Positions 52,734 to 64,000 of a DNA stretch of 64,000 bases are shown here, piece after piece. A program made the position numbers and the translations under genes. Source of the stretch: Bdellovibrionales bacterium (GTDB lineage: Bacteria; Bdellovibrionota; Bdellovibrionia; Bdellovibrionales; JAUICD01); contig CBDANC010000015.1 of the NCBI GenBank assembly GCA_965197425.1, forward strand, positions 96,001 to 160,000, given 5' to 3'. The first letter of the stretch is position 1, and every line of letters starts with the position of its first letter. The notes below the pieces were generated by a model that had not been told where the DNA came from, searched no databases, and worked only from the letters and a program-made list of their open reading frames with translations.

Positions 52734-53603
52734 CTAATTAGCTTTATTGTCTATCCACCATCTAGATTTTTGGGCTGACATTTTGGTACTGGGTTTCATT
52801 GCCAGGGCTCTTTTATTGTATTGTCTTTTGATCATATCAAAGATATTGTCTCCTGATACGCCTATTTTTTCTTTACCGTGCGTTACGCTTAGTCCTTTTA
52901 CATCTTCTTTTTTTGGTTGTTGAGGTAGGTTAAATAATGAAGAGAAGTCTGGCATTTTGTAATCCATGCTACTGGGGTTATAGCTATAAGAGTTAGGATT
53001 CGGCATGCTGTTTCTGATAGAGTTAGATGCGACTTGATGTTTTTTTAGAGCTTCATTATATTTTTTTCGAAAACCGTTTGTGATTCTTTTTTCTATTTTA
53101 CTCATCTCTGATTGTAGTTTATTGAATTCTTGAGGTGTAAAACCTGCATTCAAAAACTTCTCACGATTTTTGAGATCTTGTATATCAATTGATTTTCCTT
53201 TTGGTGTTTTTATCTTTCCAGTTTTTTGTTCTATCAAATAGCCCATATCTTCTAATTTGGATTGCATTTGTTGAAGTTTTGGGTCTGTGTAGGTATTTTG
53301 ATTTATGAGTGTTTGGGCGTAATCTGGCATTTCGTAGCCATCGGGCTTAATGTGATCTGCCGTTTTAAAGGAGCTCAGGGCTTGCTTCCCGCTTAATAAT
53401 GCTTGGCCTGTATGTACAGTTGCAAGAACACAACTAAATCCTGGTGAGGCCAGGCACTTTGCTCCTTGATCGACGGCTTCTTTGGTATTTATTGTAGAGC
53501 TGCTCATTCCGGTAATACCTGTTAGCATGGCTGAGTCAAACATGTCGTTTGCATAGATAAATAGTGGAAATATGAATGTTGTAACAAAAATGGTTTTCTT
53601 CAT
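52734..53603 (-). CDS. Hypothetical secreted protein
   Basis: Signal peptide, Cys pair, C-terminal IGVSGDNIFDMIKRQY. Confidence 0.7.
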   Translation of the reverse strand: MKKTIFVTTFIFPLFIYANDMFDSAMLTGITGMSSSTINTKEAVDQGAKCLASPGFSCVLATVHTGQALLSGKQALSSFKTADHIKPDGYEMPDYAQTLINQNTYTDPKLQQMQSKLEDMGYLIEQKTGKIKTPKGKSIDIQDLKNREKFLNAGFTPQEFNKLQSEMSKIEKRITNGFRKKYNEALKKHQVASNSIRNSMPNPNSYSYNPSSMDYKMPDFSSLFNLPQQPKKEDVKGLSVTHGKEKIGVSGDNIFDMIKRQYNKRALAMKPSTKMSAQKSRWWIDNKAN

Positions 53604-54898
53604 GGAAGAAGAATTCCTCTTTTTTCGTTAATTGACCGTGTTACTTTTTGAAAGTTACTTTCTCCGTTTGCAGTTGATATACCGGTGGAGTTTGTTGGTT
53701 TGTTTACGCTTGCTATGCTTCTTTGTTTAGCTTTTTCTCCTCCAGGAAGAAATTTCTTTAAATCAAAAAAGCTGGACTTGCCTCCGCCGAATCCATCTAA
53801 ATTAGATGAAGGGGAAGCATTAGATGGGGTGCCGTCTGTATATCCTCCGCCACCGCTTCCGCCGCTACCTCCGCCGCCACCTCCAGCAGATTGTACTCCT
53901 CCTAAAATGTCTGTGTCATAGCCAGGGCTTCCTCCTGAAGCTCCACCAGATGAGCCTCCACCGGAGTCACTGCTTCCGCCACCTCCTCCGCCAAGGCCAC
54001 CGCCGCCTCCACCTGGAGGGCTAAATCCACCGCTTCCGTTAGCTCCTTGGGATCCAAAGTCTGCTGGCTCTTCGTCTCTAAGTAGCTCATCTAGATCGTA
54101 GTTTTCATCTCCAAAGCCTTGGTTTTGTTGTTGACTGAAAGGGTCCATGTTCATGTTACCGGCTGCTCCACTGCACATAGGTGATGATGGATCTCTTAGG
54201 CATGCACAAGCTGGTTTATTGAAGTGTTCAGGTTTCCCACAATCTTCTGGAGATATGTTGCCACCTGCGGCAGCTGCATTTTGGTTTGATTCATCTTCCA
54301 TCTTCTTACAGGAGTCCATCATCCTTTTAACATTTGCGCCACTTAAAGCAGTCTGTGCTGTTAGTTGCCATTTGAAATCGCTAAATTCTTTACACTTTCT
54401 CTGGCTTACAATCCAACTAGTAAGGCCATTACCAGTAAGGCCAATGCTCTCAGGGTCCGCTGCACAAGCTGAATTACAAGCTGATACAGCCTGCCAGCAT
54501 TTACCAGTTAAGAATCCATTCATAGCAGCAGACAGCCATGTGGTACCTTCTAAAATATCACATGTCTTTTTCATATCATTAGATGCATAGGCAGACCCCA
54601 GAGCTGGTAGCATAGTTGTAAGTGCGGTAAGCCCACCTCCTACAGTGGACATATCACCCATGCACCATCTTTCCGCTGCACTAACCGCATTATGACAAGC
54701 ATTTAGTAGGTTCGTTGGCTCGTTAGGTGCAACTTCTCTAATAATGTTTAGTGTTGGAATATGTTGTTGGATTGTTCTATCTGTCTCTGGTAAGTAAGAG
54801 GGGTCTGGATCTCCTTCTGAGTTTTGTGAGTACAAATTGGTGGAAACTCCACTCGTAATGGCTAAAAATGCCAATAAAGCTAACCTTAAAAAATTCAC
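53600..54898 (-). CDS. Hypothetical secreted Cys-containing, Gly-rich protein
   Basis: Signal peptide, Cys-studded helical region, poly-Gly/Ser tract, DLKKFLPG..RSIAS, NFQKVTRS. Confidence 0.75.
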   Translation of the reverse strand: MNFLRLALLAFLAITSGVSTNLYSQNSEGDPDPSYLPETDRTIQQHIPTLNIIREVAPNEPTNLLNACHNAVSAAERWCMGDMSTVGGGLTALTTMLPALGSAYASNDMKKTCDILEGTTWLSAAMNGFLTGKCWQAVSACNSACAADPESIGLTGNGLTSWIVSQRKCKEFSDFKWQLTAQTALSGANVKRMMDSCKKMEDESNQNAAAAGGNISPEDCGKPEHFNKPACACLRDPSSPMCSGAAGNMNMDPFSQQQNQGFGDENYDLDELLRDEEPADFGSQGANGSGGFSPPGGGGGGLGGGGGGSSDSGGGSSGGASGGSPGYDTDILGGVQSAGGGGGGSGGSGGGGYTDGTPSNASPSSNLDGFGGGKSSFFDLKKFLPGGEKAKQRSIASVNKPTNSTGISTANGESNFQKVTRSINEKRGILLP

Positions 54899-54958
54899 TT
54901 ATATACCCTCACTTATAGACGATCTACAGCTCATGTACCTTCGGCAAATTTCGAACTA

Positions 54959-55109
54959 AAGGTGAGCTTAATGAGGCAAAAAACAAGGAGGCTTTGCCTA
55001 CCTTTTTTTGCCGAGTGGCTCCTTCCTGGTGGGCCTCATGGCTGATTCCTCTGTTCGGGTATTCTGGCATTCCGGAACTCAAGCAACCAGTCAGTGTTAA
55101 CCTCACCTT
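54959..55109 (+). mobile_element. 151-bp MITE-like palindromic element
   Basis: 13-bp terminal inverted repeats AAGGTGAGCTTAA / TTAACCTCACCTT (1 mismatch); internal hairpin shared with 12390. Confidence 0.7.
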
Positions 55110-55165
55110 CACACTGTATTTTATTGGGATTTTCTAAAAAAAGTTATAGCAATGTGTATCTTGTT

Positions 55166-55174
55166 TGCTATGAT
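55166..55174 (+). promoter_or_regulatory. Extended -10 element ahead of ATG 55183
   Basis: TG-C-TATGAT, 8 nt before the ATG. Confidence 0.45.
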
Positions 55175-55182
55175 CTTGTTTC

Positions 55183-58100
55183 ATGGGATGGGGCTTTCGA
55201 AACAAGAACTCTCACAGGGGTATTGACAGTAGTGCTGTTGGTGGTGTTGCTGATAAAGAAGCTAATACTAAAAACACTAGTAATAACGAATATTTAGCTG
55301 TACCCCCCCCTCTAAAATTCCGCACAGAGGTTTAAAGTTACGCTTAAGTAATGCATATTTCAAACAGAATAAAAGTTGGTTTAAGCCACTATTAAAATGC
55401 CTCCGCCTGCAAGGTGGTAAATGCCTCCATCTGCAAGGTGGTGGGTACTCTACTGGTGGTAAATGCCCCCACCTGCAAGGTGGTGGATACTCCACTGGTG
55501 GTGGTTTTACTTTAATAGAGACTGTAGTTGGTTTAGCCTTAGTATCCATATCTGGTTTTGTAGTTACATTTATATCTGGTCAGATGAACACGGCATCTAA
55601 GTTGACTGATGATTCCTATGAATGTGCAGCTATAGCTACTAATGTAATGGAGAGATTTTCTCAGGGTGGCTTAGAGCCTATTGTTTTGCTTAACTCAGAG
55701 CATTTCCCTGGTACTCCTCCTACTGATTTTGAAGCAGCTATAGAAGAAAGAAGCACTATATCTGTAAACACTAGTGGAGAGGCTACTCATAATGCTGGTC
55801 CTAATCTTGTTATAGAGCCTCATGGTAGTAATAGTCACATTACTTTGAAAGTAGATAAGTTTCATAGAGGTAGTGGTGTTAGTTTAGTAGAAGATTTATT
55901 TAACGAGTACCGTTCTACCATATGTCCATCTAATGTAGATAACCTGACCTTTGATCTTGCTAATGATATGGTGATTACCTACAAGGCTGGTAACACTGCT
56001 AAGCTGATAGACTTACATAAGAAGCTAGATGATGTAAAACCAGCAACTCCAGGACCTGAACCTGATTACTATAAGGAAATGGCTGATGCTAATTTATCTT
56101 CTAATAACTATGCTTGGGATACTTTTACCTCTGAGTACTTATATGGTTTATCCAAGAGTCTCAAAAATGCCTTAAATTTGCATCTCTTAGCAGGTTTTAC
56201 TGATTATAGTACTAGTTATACTAATACTGCTCAGCCATATGATGTGAAGATAGGTATAAGGCCTTGGAGTTTATCTAATCGTAGTGCTCTTGGTTGTACT
56301 GATACTAAGGTTCATCCAGCAGTCTTTTTAAGACCTGGTTCTAAATATGACAGATACATTACAGATAGTATTTTAGGCACCAACGAATTAGAGAGACAGA
56401 ATAAGATTGGTTATAAGCTGGAGAGGAGTCTAACTTCAGCTAAGATGAGGTCAGATGTAGGTTTGAAGTTATTTGTTGAAGTTAAAACAAGACCTGGTGT
56501 GGATAAGTTAGAAAGATCCTGTAAGTCAAATAAGTTATTTGCTTATGCTAACAGCTTTGCAGTTCCTCCATCTAGAAGACCTGTATATGTTCACCATGAC
56601 AGAGAGATTAAAGATGGTTCTAATGATTTTATAGCTTCCACAACTCACCCTCTTCAAAACAACCCTGGTTTAAATGTTGGTTATAAGTATGGTGCTGCTG
56701 ATTCTATCCCTACTAAGCCTGATGGTGCTACTCATGCTACTCTTAGTGATTATGCTACAGAAGCTACATTAAACTTTAGGAATATTGGTAAGGTTTGGAG
56801 AGATGTAAACAACCCTAGTTCCTTTGCTGATGATGAGGAAGATTTTAGAGGGGTCTTTTTATGTGGTTTTGAGAAGAATCGTTTTGAAGACTGTGTTAAA
56901 GGCCCCCCCGATTGTGATGATATACCAGGTTTAAGCTCCTATAGGACTTTTGGTACTAATGGTGCACATAAGGCTGGTATAAGAAGCTATGATACTGAGT
57001 ATGGTAGTAGAGATGGCTCCGTAAACTCATCTAGGAGATGGGATTTATGTGAGAACTTTAAGCTTACCCCCAGTCAATCTAATAATTCTACCACACTAAA
57101 AGCCAGTGCATCCAATGTAGATGATGGTAAGTTAGGACTTGAGTTAGATAATTTAAATGTATCCAGTTGGCCTGATGAAGATCAGGATGCTGATTATAGA
57201 GTTAGATTTAAGTTAGTAGATGAATATGGTAATGATTACTCTGCCACAGAAAATGGACAGATACAGGAGGATGATTATACCGAGGAGCATAGAGTTTTTG
57301 CCTACAACTGTGCACAGTTTGGTAATACTCATGCTTCTGGTAGTTATCAAAATCCCCCTATAGGCTGTGGAGTTATAAATCCTGATCCTAATATTGCTAA
57401 GTACAACCGTAGGATAGATAATCCTTTCTATAATACCCAAGCAGATTGTGAACATCAGTTTAACCTACTTTCCAGCCCCAGTGCTCAATGTGTGAAAGTT
57501 ACTAATATTAGGGTTTACAATGATTATTTTGATGATTCCATAGAGGAGAGGACAGGTCCTGCGAACAGCCCTGTTCGTCCTGTTAATGGTACTGGAGTTA
57601 CCTGTGATTATTGGGTTGAGCAATGTGTAAAAGATGGTACAGCCTGTGTGCAATGTGGCCAAGGTTATATGCGTGATTATCCTAATGCCACAAGACAATC
57701 TTGTCATGGAGGTTCTGCAAGCTTAGGTGGAGTTACCTGTTATAAAGCAGGCTCTCATTGTTGTCATAATGATTATGGTAGTTTTAACTGTTTTACAGGT
57801 AAGGATCCTTGTTCAAATCCTAATGGTTGTGGATTTAACCAAGATCCTACCTGTGGAGCTACCTGTGGTGATAACGGCCACGGATGTAATATTTGTACAG
57901 GAGCTACTCCTTGTAACACAGCTGGTTGTGATAGTTGTAGTTTTGGTACTGCTGGAGTTTGTCAATATAAGTGTAGTTTCCCTACTCAGTACTGTGATGG
58001 TGCTAGTAATTGTGTAGAATGTCTGAATGACGGCCACTGTGGTGGTAATGATATATGTTGTTCTTACAGTTGTAAGGCCCCATGTAGTCCAGATTCTGAT

Positions 58101-60719
58101 CAATGTGAGGAGTGTGCTAGTGATTGTGCATCTCCTCATTCAATATGTGGTTCTGGTGAAGGGTGTAATGGTAGTGGGTGTTGTGTAGAGCTACCGCCTT
58201 GGTGTAATCCTGCATGTACAGGTACAGATATATGTTGTGGTACTGGTACTTGTCAGTCTAGTTGTGCTCCCCTGAATGTTGGTGCATGTACTTCTGGTAA
58301 TACACCTCCGCCTCCATGTCCTGGTGGTCAGATAATGTGTGGTGGTAGTTGTAGGATTGCAGCTTGTAATAATGATAATGACTGTAATTCAGGTGAGACC
58401 TGTCAGAATGGAGGAAGTTGTACTGCTACATGTGCAGGTGTTACCTGTGGTACTGGTAGTATGACGGGCTATCCTAATTCTCCTCCTGATCCAGGGTGTG
58501 GAGCTACAAGTAGAATCGCAAGTGGTGTAGAATGCTGGACAGATCCAAATTGTACAGGAAGTACTCCGAACTGCTGTGGCACAACTTGTCAGGCCACTTG
58601 TGGCTGTACCTCAGATATTGAGTGCTCTGTGCCTACACCGGCTACTCCGTGTTGTGTTGGTACTACCTGTGCTGCTGCAGCTTGTACAGTAGATCCTAAT
58701 AATTGTGTAACATGTCCTACTGGCTCGTGTGGTACTCCAGTTACAGGGCCAGCAACTTGTACGGCGGACCCGAATACATGTACCACATGTCCTAATGGTC
58801 CATGTGGTACTCCAGTTACAACAACTCCTTGTGGTCCATGTAACCCACCAACTTGCACGCCGGATCCTGATAATTGTGTAACATGTCCTACTGGCTCATG
58901 TGGTACTCCAGTGACGGGAACAGCAACTTGTACGGCGGACCCGAATACATGTACTACATGTTCTAATGGCCCATGTGGTACTCCAGTTACAACAACTCCT
59001 TGTGGTCCATGTACTTCTAATAGTGACTGTGCTGATCCAGCTAAGCCGAATTGTTGTGGTGGAAGCTGTCAAGCAGTCACTTGCGTAAGTACACCATGTA
59101 CTTCTAATGGTGACTGTGCTGATCCAGCTAAGCCGAATTGTTGTGGTGGAAGCTGTCAAGCAGCTACTTGTCCAGTAAACTGTGGTACACCTACTTGTGA
59201 TGACTGTGAGACACAACAAAATTGTACTGGAACAGGGTGGACCTGTGCACCTAAAACTGATGGAACTAGTTGTGGCACATGTGGAACATGCAGTAGCGGG
59301 TCTTGTAATGAACCGGCTACTTGTCCAGTAAACTGTGGTACACCTACTTGTGATGACTGTGAGACACAACAAAATTGTACTGGAACAGGGTGGACCTGTG
59401 CACCTAAAACTGATGGAACTAGTTGTGGCACATGTGGAACATGCAGTAGCGGGTCTTGTAATGAACCGGCTACTTGTCCAGTAAACTGTGGTACACCTAC
59501 TTGTGATGACTGTGAGACACAACAAAATTGTACTGGAACAGGGTGGACCTGTGCACCTAAAACTGATGGAACTAGTTGTGGCACATGTGGAACATGCAGT
59601 AGCGGGTCTTGTAATGAACCGGCTACTTGTCCAGTAAACTGTGGTACACCTACTTGTGATGACTGTGAGACACAACAAAATTGTACTGGAACAGGGTGGA
59701 CCTGTGCACCTAAAACTGATGGAACTAGTTGTGGCACATGTGGAACATGCAGTAGCGGGTCTTGTAATGAACCGGCTACTTGTCCAGTAAACTGTGGTAC
59801 ACCTACTTGTGATGACTGTGAGACACAACAAAATTGTACTGGAACAGGGTGGACCTGTGCACCTAAAACTGATGGAACTAGTTGTGGCACATGTGGAACA
59901 TGCAGTAGCGGGTCTTGTAATGAACCGGCTACTTGTCCAGTAAACTGTGGTACACCTACTTGTGATGACTGTGAGACACAACAAAATTGTACTGGAACAG
60001 GGTGGACCTGTGCACCTAAAACTGATGGAACTAGTTGTGGCACATGTGGAACATGCAGTAGCGGGTCTTGTAATGAACCGGCTACTTGTCCAGTAAACTG
60101 TGGTACACCTACTTGTGATGACTGTGAGACACAACAAAATTGTACTGGAACAGGGTGGACCTGTGCACCTAAAACTGATGGAACTAGTTGTGGCACATGT
60201 GGAACATGCAGTAGCGGGTCTTGTAATGAACCGGCTACTTGTCCAGTAAACTGTGGTACACCTACTTGTGATGACTGTGAGACACAACAAAATTGTACTG
60301 GAACAGGGTGGACCTGTGCACCTAAAACTGATGGAACTAGTTGTGGCACATGTGGAACATGCAGTAGCGGGTCTTGTAATGAACCATCACCCTGTCCATG
60401 TACCTCCGATAGCGAATGTGGTGCGGGTGAAAGATGTTGTTCTGGTGACTGCATAGAACCTGCTTGTAGCAGTGATGGTGATTGCAATTCAGGTGAAACT
60501 TGTGAAAATCCAGGAGATTGTAATGCCAGTTGTGTTGATCCGTGTGACGGTGCAAGAGATTGTCAGGCTAGTAATGCTTTCGATGTCAGTGATTTGTCGA
60601 GTTGCACGGCGTGGGCAATTGGAGCAGGCTTGGGTGAATGTAACCCGCTACCACCAAGTTGCGAAGCATTCTATCATAACAGCACACTTTGTTGTTATGT
60701 AGCTGTGTGCGGATTTTAG
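55183..60719 (+). CDS. Giant type IV prepilin-like surface protein with Cys-rich repeat stalk; start separated by a frameshift at C8 (55303-55310)
   Basis: The frame of ORF 55584-60719 is open back to 55287 and reads G|FTLIETVVGLALVSISGFVVTFI at 55503; ATG 55183 joins this frame if the C tract is 9 long. Confidence 0.75.
55395..55502 (+). repeat. In-frame A-A-B-A-B minisatellite (24-bp and 18-bp units) in the pilin leader
   Basis: A = AAATGCCYCCRYCTGCAAGGTGGT, B = GGRTACTCYACTGGTGGT. Confidence 0.85.
58681..59162 (+). repeat. Imperfect duplications, 2 x 171 bp and 2 x 87 bp, encoding Cys-rich modules
   Basis: CT.DP.NCVTCPTGSCGTPVTG...PCGPC twice; PCTSN.DCADPAKPNCCGGSCQA twice. Confidence 0.85.
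59163..60386 (+). repeat. 8 x 153-bp essentially perfect tandem repeat (51 aa, 10 Cys)
   Basis: Units start at 59163, 59316, 59469, 59622, 59775, 59928, 60081 and 60234. Confidence 0.97.
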
Positions 60720-60982: not shown

Positions 60983-63900
60983 TTAATGTTTAGCTCTCAG
61001 TGCTTTTGCAGTTATTGCATTGGAAACTGTCGAAAGATCTAAAGGAGCAACACTCCTATCAGAATATTCAGAAACAGTTTTAATTGTATACTGTGCTGCC
61101 TCAGATGAGTCTGCAACAATACCCCTATGAGGTCCTCCAATTCTAATTGAACTATTAGAAAGATTGTTATTGTGATGATAACGGCAGTATCCAACATATG
61201 AATCTATATCGACATCTTCACAAAGTTCCGATACTAAAACCTCCTTGTCAGCGCTAAATACAGGAACGAATTGATTGGTCCCAGAATAGGACATTATAGT
61301 TGAAACTGGAAGATCGCTTAGATACCCTCCATAGCCATAGCCAAACCCAGTAGCATTTGCACCATTAAGTCCAAACGATCCCGGATCTGCCCCAGCGTTC
61401 AACAGTGTATCTACATCATGGTGAAGACCTAAAATATGACCAATTTCATGCGCTAATATACTAGAAGCTGAATAGTAGTTACCACTACTATTACTTGAAA
61501 AGAAATGATCCCTAACCCTTACAACTCCCCTAGAGTTCCATCTGGATAAAGAGTGATGATTAATATAGAACGGATTTATTGTTGCCGCACCACCTCCTGT
61601 GCCAAGAACAACTGAAAAAATTATGTCAGCAGGGTGATCCTTACGAATAATCGGGAGGAACTCCAAAAGTAATGCTTGTTCCCCTTGTCCATATGAAGAG
61701 CCAGCATTAAGCCTTTCATCTTCAAAAAATAAATCATCAAAGGAAGGCAGATCACATAGCAAATACCCTCTATACTCAGAAAAAGGACTCATTACTGAAG
61801 CCCTAAGCTCAACATTTATCCCAGATCTCTGAAATAACCTGTTTGTATTTTCAATAACATTATCTTCAAACTTCTTTCGCCAATCACCAATAGCATTGTT
61901 TACAATAGTATCTGAAAAAATGAATGCAGCATCAATAACATACCTAGTGTTAGGCTCTGCTTTTTCAAACTTTTGTCTTTGCTCATCACCACCAAATATA
62001 TCATCCGACATTGCACCATCAAAGGCTACGTCATCTGGTAAAGAGGCAAATGCTCCAGTTGCATATGTATCACATGTAAAACGATCTACTTCCTCCTGAT
62101 CACCATGCTGCTCATGATAGCGATCATAACTTGATGTAGATGGTCTGTATTCAACATCACAAGAATTGAAAGCATACACAACTCCATAATCTCCATGATA
62201 AAATGTTTTTGTGTCGTCTAAATAGGAATTAACAGAGCTACTATCAGCGATCTTAGCTACATCAGATCTTCTGGCAAAATTGCTGACCACAACATCATAA
62301 ACAACCCACTCAGTAAAAATTTCTCCGAAATGTGTTGCAGGCTCATACGGAGGATTTATAGTAATAACAGTCTTACCACCTAAATGACTTACCGATGCTA
62401 GGTTCAAACCTATAGGTCCGTTTAATCTTACACGATCCTCTCTAGGCCGATATTCCCTTTCAGAAATCTCTATCATCTCTAGAATATCTTCCTTTGTAAT
62501 CTCTCGCCACTGGCCAGAATCAGGTAAATATACAACCTCTGAATCAAAATAAATCTTTATAACTTCTGTTGGATCCCAACTGGACTCAATTAACTCCCTT
62601 CCTCCTCTTGGAGTGAAAGTGTAGACTACCTGAGGAATCCTAATGCAGTCCTTCGAGCCATCATCATTTGTTAGCTCAAAATAGCCAGAAGCATTCTCTT
62701 CACACAAGGTGCTAATATTAGGTGTTGAAAATGAAGAGTATTCTTTGTTTATTAGTGCAAGGTAGTCTTCTGTGTTGGTAGCATCTAAGACTTTCGAGAC
62801 GTTTAAAGAACTGGCATAGTTTTTTACCTTTACTGAATAACTTCCAGCAGGATAGCTTGGTTGAGGAGTTAGGATAAAATATGAGCTTTCCTCCTCAACT
62901 CCTGCTTCCATCTGAAATCTAAATGTACTAGTTAATAGATTTGTGCCTCCTGTGTTTAGTTCGATCATGTTTCTTGCAAAAGCTGCTGTAAGCCCTTCAT
63001 AACGAGAAGAATCTATAAAACTTATTCTTTCATCAAAACTTACCTTTATAGAGTGATCTGAGATTGTAGATGTATCTTCTACGGTGTTTCCTTCTTTATC
63101 AAGGTAAGTAATAGTAGGAGGGTTTATAAGCTTAATACAATCTGTTGTATTATCATCATAAGTTAACTCAAAATAACCAACTTCTTCTCTTCCACAAGGA
63201 GTTTCTATGTTAAAAGGTTGTTCTTGGCTTATTTCAGCTAGATAGCTTTGAATGTTATTACTTGCTAAAATAGCTCCATCATCATCACTTTTTGCATAAT
63301 TACCTACAGACAATACATACTGACCCAGCTCATATCTATTATCATTAGGAGGATTTATAGTAATAACTGTATTTTCGTTAGATTCTGTGACAGATATCTG
63401 ATCTTCACCAATAGGACCATCTACAGTTGCAAGATCAACTCCTGAACTATTAGTAATTGCAATCATTTCTAAGATATTTGGCTTGGTTAGACTGTTGGAT
63501 GTAATACCGTCTGTGTACACTATCTTAGCATCAAACTCCATTCTTATAATAGTGGTAGGATCTCCACTGTGTTCATCAGAAAAACTTTCTTTATCTTGTG
63601 TAAAGGTAAAGCTTAGTTGAGGTAGCTTTATACAACTAGTAGTTAAATTATTATTTGTTAGCTCAAAATAACCAGGTTCATTATTAGTACAAGAAGTTGG
63701 TATTACAGGAGATGTAAAAGAGGATAAGGACTGTGACATAGCATTAATCTTGCTAAGATACTCAGCTCTGTTAGTAGCATTAGCAATCTTGGATATATCA
63801 GCCTTCTTTGCATAATTACTCACACCAACTACATAATCTCCAGCAGGGTAGTTGGTTTCCGGAGTTAAAGTAAAAGAAGTCTCATCACTTGAAATCTCTA

Positions 63901-64000
63901 TGGTAAAACCAAAGCCAACATCTAACAGATCTATATTGCCTAACTTTATATCAACCATCTTAACTACATTCTCGGGAGTTAAGTTTCCATGGTCAGTAGC
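60983..64000 (-). CDS. Large repeat-containing metzincin (reprolysin/M12B-like) metalloprotease; 5' end outside window
   Basis: HEIGHILGLHHD and Met-turn STIMSY; about 165-aa repeats joined by C...GYFELT...CI; frame open to 64000. Confidence 0.85.
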   Translation of the reverse strand, partial: ATDHGNLTPENVVKMVDIKLGNIDLLDVGFGFTIEISSDETSFTLTPETNYPAGDYVVGVSNYAKKADISKIANATNRAEYLSKINAMSQSLSSFTSPVIPTSCTNNEPGYFELTNNNLTTSCIKLPQLSFTFTQDKESFSDEHSGDPTTIIRMEFDAKIVYTDGITSNSLTKPNILEMIAITNSSGVDLATVDGPIGEDQISVTESNENTVITINPPNDNRYELGQYVLSVGNYAKSDDDGAILASNNIQSYLAEISQEQPFNIETPCGREEVGYFELTYDDNTTDCIKLINPPTITYLDKEGNTVEDTSTISDHSIKVSFDERISFIDSSRYEGLTAAFARNMIELNTGGTNLLTSTFRFQMEAGVEEESSYFILTPQPSYPAGSYSVKVKNYASSLNVSKVLDATNTEDYLALINKEYSSFSTPNISTLCEENASGYFELTNDDGSKDCIRIPQVVYTFTPRGGRELIESSWDPTEVIKIYFDSEVVYLPDSGQWREITKEDILEMIEISEREYRPREDRVRLNGPIGLNLASVSHLGGKTVITINPPYEPATHFGEIFTEWVVYDVVVSNFARRSDVAKIADSSSVNSYLDDTKTFYHGDYGVVYAFNSCDVEYRPSTSSYDRYHEQHGDQEEVDRFTCDTYATGAFASLPDDVAFDGAMSDDIFGGDEQRQKFEKAEPNTRYVIDAAFIFSDTIVNNAIGDWRKKFEDNVIENTNRLFQRSGINVELRASVMSPFSEYRGYLLCDLPSFDDLFFEDERLNAGSSYGQGEQALLLEFLPIIRKDHPADIIFSVVLGTGGGAATINPFYINHHSLSRWNSRGVVRVRDHFFSSNSSGNYYSASSILAHEIGHILGLHHDVDTLLNAGADPGSFGLNGANATGFGYGYGGYLSDLPVSTIMSYSGTNQFVPVFSADKEVLVSELCEDVDIDSYVGYCRYHHNNNLSNSSIRIGGPHRGIVADSSEAAQYTIKTVSEYSDRSVAPLDLSTVSNAITAKALRAKH

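Follow-up and report, generated by a model that had tools for sequence, protein, structure and literature searches.

The Locus

Here, we describe a gene for a giant, cysteine-rich, putative pilin-type protein in a 64,000-nt stretch of DNA from a Bdellovibrionales bacterium (hereafter, the window; positions 96,001–160,000 of contig CBDANC010000015.1, assembly GCA_965197425.1). The genome under study (G000; C4, C6, and C11–C15 denote its contigs, and the window gene lies on C15) is 1.6 Mb in size, has 35% GC, is 99% complete, and uses all three stop codons; the best two of the 80 matches listed for its RecA are from Pseudobdellovibrionaceae (77–78%), which makes a position within Bdellovibrionales likely. 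A sequence-only reading of the window had proposed that the start of this gene lies behind a frameshifting C run. On re-reading the sequence, we find, as had been claimed, a frame that is open from 55287 to 60719 on the plus strand; it has no ATG, GTG, or TTG ahead of 55584. The Gly codon at 55503 and FTLIE from 55506 also lie where that reading placed them, and its TGnTATGAT is TG-C-TATGAT, 8 nt ahead of an ATG at 55183. The gene comprises the following features:

55132–55182, plus strand: promoter-like block with an A-tract, TAGCAA (55147–55152), 16 nt, and TG-n-TATGAT (55166–55174); present in four of four paralogues by alignment
55183–55505, plus strand: leader peptide from the ATG to Gly-1, 108 aa if in frame; hydrophilic, with 16 K/R and 4 D/E
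55303–55310, plus strand: C8 run, out of frame; in-frame lengths are 9, 12, and 15
55333–55335, plus strand: stop codon met with C8, giving a 50-aa product
55395–55502, plus strand: 24/42-nt leader repeats, whose copy numbers differ between alleles by multiples of 3
55503–55664, plus strand: class III signal motif G/FTLIE, hydrophobic stretch, and predicted helix of about 52 residues (TIGR02532; low-confidence models)
55665–57605, plus strand: Cys-poor head without a known family; the first 616 mature residues are 93–100% identical among paralogues
57606–60719, plus strand: Cys-rich variable tail, mosaic among paralogues, with about 20 Cys per 100 aa
59163–60385, plus strand: 8.0 perfect copies of a 153-bp unit (51 aa, 10 Cys), from repeat analysis

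In a run-length test, translation from the ATG at 55183 meets the stop codon after 50 codons with the C8 run, stops after 43 codons with C7, and opens into GFTLIE with C9, which confirms the frameshift as it had been proposed. The leader predicted for C9 is actually read by a paralogue on C12 that has a C9 run in near-identical flanks. Recoding of the stop codon was rejected because TAA, TAG, and TGA each terminate long frames in G000. The predicted mature protein has 1,737 aa and 204 Cys. This length agrees with the sequence-only reading, but its internal boundaries had to be moved: the Cys-poor part reaches residue 700 or so instead of 550, and about 1,040 aa, not more than 1,100, make up the Cys-rich tail. 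The RNA fold of the leader-repeat region is strong in the window copy (z −3.9); across the four copies described below z is −3.75, −3.01, −1.96, and −0.14, and because the fold is not common to all of them no role is claimed for it.

Four Paralogues with Different Run Lengths

The promoter-like block, the ATG, the C run, and the pilin motif are common to four loci in the genome, which differ in run length, frame, and size of the product:

C15 (window): C8, out of frame, 1,737 aa
C12: C9, in frame, 1,439 aa
C14: C16, in frame, 1,844 aa
C6: C16, out of frame, 1,544 aa

The C15 and C14 copies share 3,053 identical nucleotides and then diverge, the C12 and C6 copies are 94% alike across 3,890 nt, and short tail modules reappear among the copies in altered order, a pattern that would be expected of homogenized heads and shuffled tails. 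No C-terminal anchor is common to the tails, and the copies are located apart from pilus operons. G/C runs of at least 9 nt are in excess in the genome (10 observed vs. 1.6 expected; for runs of at least 8 nt, 12 vs. 7.8), and its two 16-mer runs both lie inside paralogues of the window gene.

Run lengths were also followed in six sequencing runs (X1–X6), all as contigs at low depth and none recorded as RNA; X3 was left out, its share being too small. X1 and X2 represent one sample, which may be the source sample, and X4 and X6 come from two other studies. An X1 contig covers 55176–56200 with C8 and without differences or gaps, including 127 bases upstream of the run, at a single-copy depth of only about 3 to 5, and the X2 contigs stop short of bridging the run. 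X4 and X6 have one extra C (C9) plus 6 and 8 other differences, because of which we regard them as diverged strains; their contigs are not assignable to a particular paralogue.

The repeat lies within the 5′ coding region, its length fixes the frame, and allele lengths differ (C8 and C9 in near-identical flanks, C9 in X4 and X6, and G9–G13 in the congener G001 described below), as is characteristic of phase-variable genes. We consider it quite likely that slippage at the leader C run switches each of the four giant pilin-type genes independently, so that cells would display differing subsets of predicted tip adhesins.

Several further observations in G000 concern related sequences. Two orphan cassettes were found, one with a promoter and a leader cut off at the run position (C15:82927–83132) and one with the promoter block alone (C13:37554–37614). 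Other long C runs, which are candidate contingency loci, lie at C15:372515 and 374114 (C10 each), upstream of two paralogous lipoprotein-like genes, and at C13:247885 (C9), C13:136258 (C10), and C15:8237 (C11); two of the latter three are upstream of further exported-protein genes and one is in frame within a gene that we take to be ExbD-like. A separate Cys-rich exported family with up to 182 Cys is encoded at C15:437541–441149, C14:141377–143362, C12:73054–74340, and C12:83994–85013; two of its members flank the C12 pilin cassette, and one has short tail modules of the pilins. Upstream of the window copy only, and outside the shared cassette, is a dispersed repeat:

54957–55046, no strand assigned: palindrome whose long stem is A/T, matched by 74 BLAST hits across the genome at E ≤ 1e-4

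Farther upstream, the minus strand of the window (52734–54898) encodes two exported proteins without a family, one with a Gly/Ser-rich C-terminal half.

Probable Initiation at the Upstream ATG

No Shine–Dalgarno sequence precedes the ATG at 55183, and a leaderless start is therefore suggested. At the proposed promoter, a scan for consensus sites made no call (0 found). Boxes resembling a −10 element occur 5–9 nt before the ATG in 36 of 409 genes without a Shine–Dalgarno sequence compared with 18–20 at control offsets, two of the 36 being the in-frame paralogues; therefore, leaderless initiation at this ATG is plausible.

Homologues from elsewhere agree with this start. P0004 (66% identical) has the same starting peptide, carries a proline run, and keeps its frame from this ATG, as does P0021 (84% identical), in which the run is deleted and the leader has 73 codons; contig pieces from X5 sum to a run-less leader of 219 nt, as in P0021. 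Paralogues and homologues, including a run-less allele and a distant homologue, thus bear out the sequence-only reading as to start, frameshift, and pilin-type motif; the multigene system and its pairing with protease genes were out of view for that reading. Indels ahead of the run are 15, 15, and 21 nt long. Downstream of the run, the leader frame of P0004 differs from that of G000; therefore, the leader sequence appears to matter little as long as it remains open, as expected if the leader is a disposable, frame-tolerant spacer. Long prepilin leaders exist elsewhere in G000: the leader of a PilA-like prepilin at C13:112402 has 44 residues, and that of the adjacent paralogue has 14.

Identity of the Predicted Protein

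A class III signal (PMC10191384) is recognizable in the window gene by a hydrophilic, net-positive leader with a peak hydropathy of 0.23 that ends in Gly, followed by Glu5 and a hydrophobic stretch. Hydropathy peaks at 2.14 in the pilin helix, the sole peak above 1.5 in the stretch identical among paralogues, and Glu5 is kept to 90% or more in all 10 aligned members. TIGR02532 scores 17.9–18.0 bits against a cut-off of 16.3 for short pieces and in a genome search and 11.1 on the whole frame, and the weak N-terminal matches include GspI/GspH. Both low-confidence AlphaFold2 models (predicted local distance difference test, pLDDT, 29–32) place a helix at residues 2–53. Foldseek with the second model gave no match at E ≤ 0.001, a PDB sequence search returned two rows, both with E ≥ 0.15, and the ESM Atlas gave only leads under 0.9. 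No Pfam family scored above its cut-off in eight pieces of the tail, and no Pfam match to the PilY1 beta-propeller was found in the whole frame, which thus does not group with the PilC/PilY1 adhesins; a PilY1 search found the domain in none of five genomes, with the control silent as well. G000 encodes six T2SSE-family ATPases over the cut-off, four secretins, and one prepilin peptidase, and three type IV filament systems: a type IV pilus, a type II secretion system (T2SS), and Tad. We class the product of the window gene as a pilin-type protein and a probable modular minor pilin, short of a confirmed pilus subunit.

A Poly-G Run in a Congener

Among 40 relatives, the head was matched only in G001, a genome of the same genus, and a profile search of the family agrees with this result; protein searches gave 9 hits among 1.84 billion representatives, and no relatives were found in scans of genome-contig and metagenome-contig collections. 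The head is 34–35% identical to that of G001 in the two copies aligned, and in a head tree the copies cluster by genome. G001 has eight copies, each with a run of G9–G13 at codon 69–79 of the mature protein; two of the eight are in frame (G12 and G9), and the others, five with G13 and one with G11, are out of frame, where the off state is predicted to be a mini-pilin of 83–92 residues. Short products ending at the G run were also found in other assemblies (P0013–P0016; ENA, JGI, and Logan records). G001 contains nothing homologous to the leader cassette of the window gene, which in turn is without a run where the G run lies in G001. By sequence, then, the two switches differ, the predicted one of G001 being a poly-G run after the helix and that of the window gene a poly-C run in the leader. 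The leader of the G11 copy (L035) additionally contains an in-frame TAG, a second break besides the run.

A Parallel Family in the Sister Genus

A genome-wide prepilin search revealed more giant Cys-rich frames in G002. This second giant Cys-rich prepilin family occurs in two of 201 genomes of the order (G002 and G004), both from the sister genus:

G002, six copies (L175–L178, L198, and L199): leader runs of C17, C17, and C18 out of frame and of C16 and C19 in frame; one copy without a run
G004, seven copies (L191–L197): one C19 run in a 30-codon leader, in frame; six copies without a run

Given the run-less copies, the predicted switch is an add-on and not a fixed part of giant pilins. Homology between this family and that of the window gene was not established beyond the pilin N-terminus: hhalign gave 57% across no more than the first 119 columns, and the sister-genus profile ranks the window family at E ~3 among 1,281 frames. 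No protease neighbor of the kind described below was seen next to the sister-genus pilins. Two frames in G000 do match the sister-genus profile, one of 1,628 aa and rich in Cys at C4:260–5146 (E 1e-45), on a small contig that could be foreign to the bin, and a prepilin of 618 aa at C12:152593–154470 (E 3e-8). Judged by prepilin motifs, of which there are 44 in G002 (most in frames of 200–270 aa) compared with 15 in G000 and 18 in G001, G002 has a large bank of predicted pilins of ordinary size.

A Metzincin Protease Gene Next to the Pilin Gene

The gene downstream of the window pilin gene is convergent with it:

60983–64000, minus strand: gene for 1,333 aa, with its start some 1 kb outside the window; the product has a signal peptide, a lipobox-like motif in its interior, a stalk of repeats, and a C-terminal metzincin domain
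61418–61450, minus strand: zinc-binding motif HEIGHILGLHH (HExxHxxGxxH) of this gene; Reprolysin_4, 27.4 bits against a cut-off of 22

In 11 of 12 cases the pilin gene has a giant metzincin protease gene immediately downstream, four of four in G000 (at 60983–64000, minus strand, in the window and at C12:74969, C6:46431, and C14:356468) and seven of eight in G001 (L160–L164, L173, and L174). Ten of these pairs are convergent, including all four in G000, which stand tail to tail, and one is co-oriented. The neighbor protease genes of G000 encode 1,183–1,514 aa, beginning with a signal peptide, followed by an internal lipobox-like motif, and ending in the HExxHxxGxxH domain; the protease is probably lipid-anchored. 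No G/C runs of at least 8 nt were found at the eight such loci checked. A terminator scan called none between the convergent genes of the window (hairpin z −1.08).

Members of the protease family also occur unlinked to pilin genes (two of six matches in G000 and eight of 15 genes in G001, whose 17 matches include two second pieces). In a protease-domain tree of 20 sequences (all six from G000, 12 of the 15 from G001, and one each from G011 and G022, with a dissimilar C11 candidate dropped), the pilin-linked proteases form one clade per genome at 100/100; a single clade of all 11 was weakly rejected in the approximately unbiased test (p-AU 0.029; long branches). Co-amplification of the pilin and protease genes as a two-gene cassette is well supported by these gene neighborhoods and trees.

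Alternative Explanations

A number of points weigh against a switchable pilin. With regard to the protein, PF07963 scores below its cut-off for the window copy (19.3 vs. 21.2), so that the pilin call finds backing from this model in two of the six pilin pieces tested (21.6 and 23.8) and not in the window copy itself; both AlphaFold2 models failed (pLDDT 28.9 and 32.4); and the 108-aa leader is unusually long, with no K/R among the last residues ahead of Gly-1. With regard to switching, C8 is shorter than the 9-base cut-off for G/C runs (PhasomeIt, Neisseria; PMC5953494), which the other three of the four paralogues reach, and a lone C8 does not exceed chance; MutL is encoded in G000; no length mixture was seen at the window locus in the low-depth contigs, of which X1 and X2 may be from the source sample; 7 of the 13 sister-genus copies are without a run (leader poly-C in 6 of 13); and in G001 the start codon is ambiguous and the G11 and G13 lengths could include consensus errors. 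Because its run is under the cut-off and not above chance and MutL is present, the C8 copy may revert only rarely. The same three facts fit a window copy that went from C9 to C8 as a decaying or nearly permanently silenced duplicate, at most a donor of tail modules in a family still phase-variable in principle, and the orphan leader at C15:82927 and the promoter-only copy at C13:37554 show that copies decay. However, the 5.2-kb frame beyond the run is stop-free, its first 3,053 nt are those of the in-frame C14 copy, and the promoter-like block is intact; we therefore hold such silencing to be improbable.

It is very improbable that the C8 allele is expressed through a noncanonical start or −1 slippage of ribosome or polymerase, with the run tuning the level. 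The frame does contain near-cognate codons (ATA at 55290, ATT at 55317, and CTG at 55407, 55431, and 55473), a CTG just ahead of the Gly-rich leader end is common to all four copies, and C-CCC-CCU permits tRNA re-pairing. Yet translation from the ATG at 55183 stays in frame in both the run-less allele and the distant homologue, the ATA and ATT are in another frame in the C9 paralogue, and the CTGs have no Shine–Dalgarno sequence and lie inside the strong RNA fold; the sequence-only reading had itself named a noncanonical start as an alternative, and no downstream ATG, GTG, or TTG is common to the four copies. Least probable of all is that the assembly has the homopolymer wrong at C8 and that the gene is just on, which the sequence-only reading had also considered, should all reads have C9. 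Homopolymers are error-prone, the depth of X1 is low, and X2 does not bridge the run, but the X1 contig crosses it with C8, gap-free and with the upstream bases, and out-of-frame products recur in the ENA, JGI, and Logan records of relatives.

A different doubt, compatible with switching, concerns display alone: the protein may not be a type IVa subunit, its class III signal serving as a membrane anchor or being handled by the T2SS or Tad system. The lack of a confident fold, the weak GspI/GspH matches, the presence of three type IV filament systems, and the distance of the copies from pilus operons speak for it, whereas modular pilins with bulky grafted domains have been proposed as tip subunits (PMC8179133, PMC10628169), Glu5 is conserved throughout the aligned members, and the tails share no C-terminal anchor. 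We regard this as a serious though less likely possibility.

Proposed Mechanism and Comparison with Known Systems

Under independent switching of four pilin-type genes, the transcript of the window gene would be leaderless and begin at the ATG at 55183. With C8 the ribosome would halt after 50 codons and release a 50-aa peptide, and with C9 the protein would be inserted by Sec with its 108-residue leader kept in the cytoplasm until PilD removes it, so that the mature protein would never be affected by how many prolines the run encodes. Disulfides would form outside the cell, and the Cys-rich tail may act as a stalk or binding region at the filament tip, a location suggested by analogy with modular pilins (PMC8179133, PMC10628169) and because a disulfide-bonded tail would be too bulky for the filament body. 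RecA-type exchange among copies could homogenize the heads and reshuffle the modules of the tails. Each copy would flip independently, and, as switching is expected to be faster in longer runs (PMC5953494), the C16 copies would do so often and the C8 copy rarely.

Paralogous adhesin genes that slip within the region coding for the signal are already established in Neisseria, namely pilC (PMC13190605) and opa (PMC3960869). As in pilC1/pilC2, which vary in phase by poly-G (Jonsson 1991, cited in PMC13190605 and PMC5953494), paralogous genes for (here, putative) type IV pilus adhesins carry a G/C run in the signal-peptide region; however, PilC is not a pilin and no PilY1 domain was found in the window protein, the run is in the prepilin leader (in the congener, after the helix), and there are four to eight copies. 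Like opa, the genes form a dispersed multigene family in which a leader-coding repeat switches each copy and recombination within an isolate diversifies them (both putative here), whereas Opa are outer-membrane proteins with CTCTT repeats and here a mononucleotide run precedes a pilin-type protein of 1,400–1,850 aa. Like Streptococcus sanguinis PilB/PilC and CofB of enterotoxigenic Escherichia coli (PMC8179133, PMC10628169), the window protein has a class III signal, large grafted domains, and a predicted tip location; unlike these modular minor pilins it has unclassified Cys-rich tail modules and belongs to a multicopy set that is probably frameshift-switched. The sizes quoted are 454 aa for PilB and 860 aa for the case with the most domains, compared with 1,439–1,844 aa here, although Dataset S1 of PMC8179133 may list longer ones. 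In CofB–CofJ (PMC8179133), too, a large minor pilin is linked to a secreted partner, but the partner here is a convergent, probably lipid-anchored metzincin linked by gene neighborhood. No description of this giant pilin family was found in the literature outside subscription journals. New here are the on/off pattern of four copies, the support for the start, the pairing with proteases, the parallel family, and the fact that one family has two switch positions.

Banks of phase-variable adhesins are known chiefly from pathogens that face selection by a host. We tentatively suggest, as a possibility still short of likely, that a family of Bdellovibrionales with small genomes has repeatedly and independently evolved opa-like antigenic variation based on the largest pilins, in which four to eight giant tip pilins with constant heads and shuffled disulfide-bonded tails gained homopolymers at differing places and are each paired with their own surface metalloprotease, which may work with the pilin or trim it; such variation might serve attachment to or evasion of eukaryotic hosts, or changing prey. 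The predicted proteins would stretch the limits of prepilins, with a leader of 70–108 residues as a disposable, frame-tolerant housing for the switch and with a single pilin helix bearing about 1,700 residues, and two switch positions within one gene family offer a testable case of the repeated evolution of contingency loci. That a 1.6-Mb genome devotes about 20 kb to four giant pilins and another 16 kb to the neighboring proteases suggests that selection for diversity is strong at the surface of cells in this uncultured lineage.

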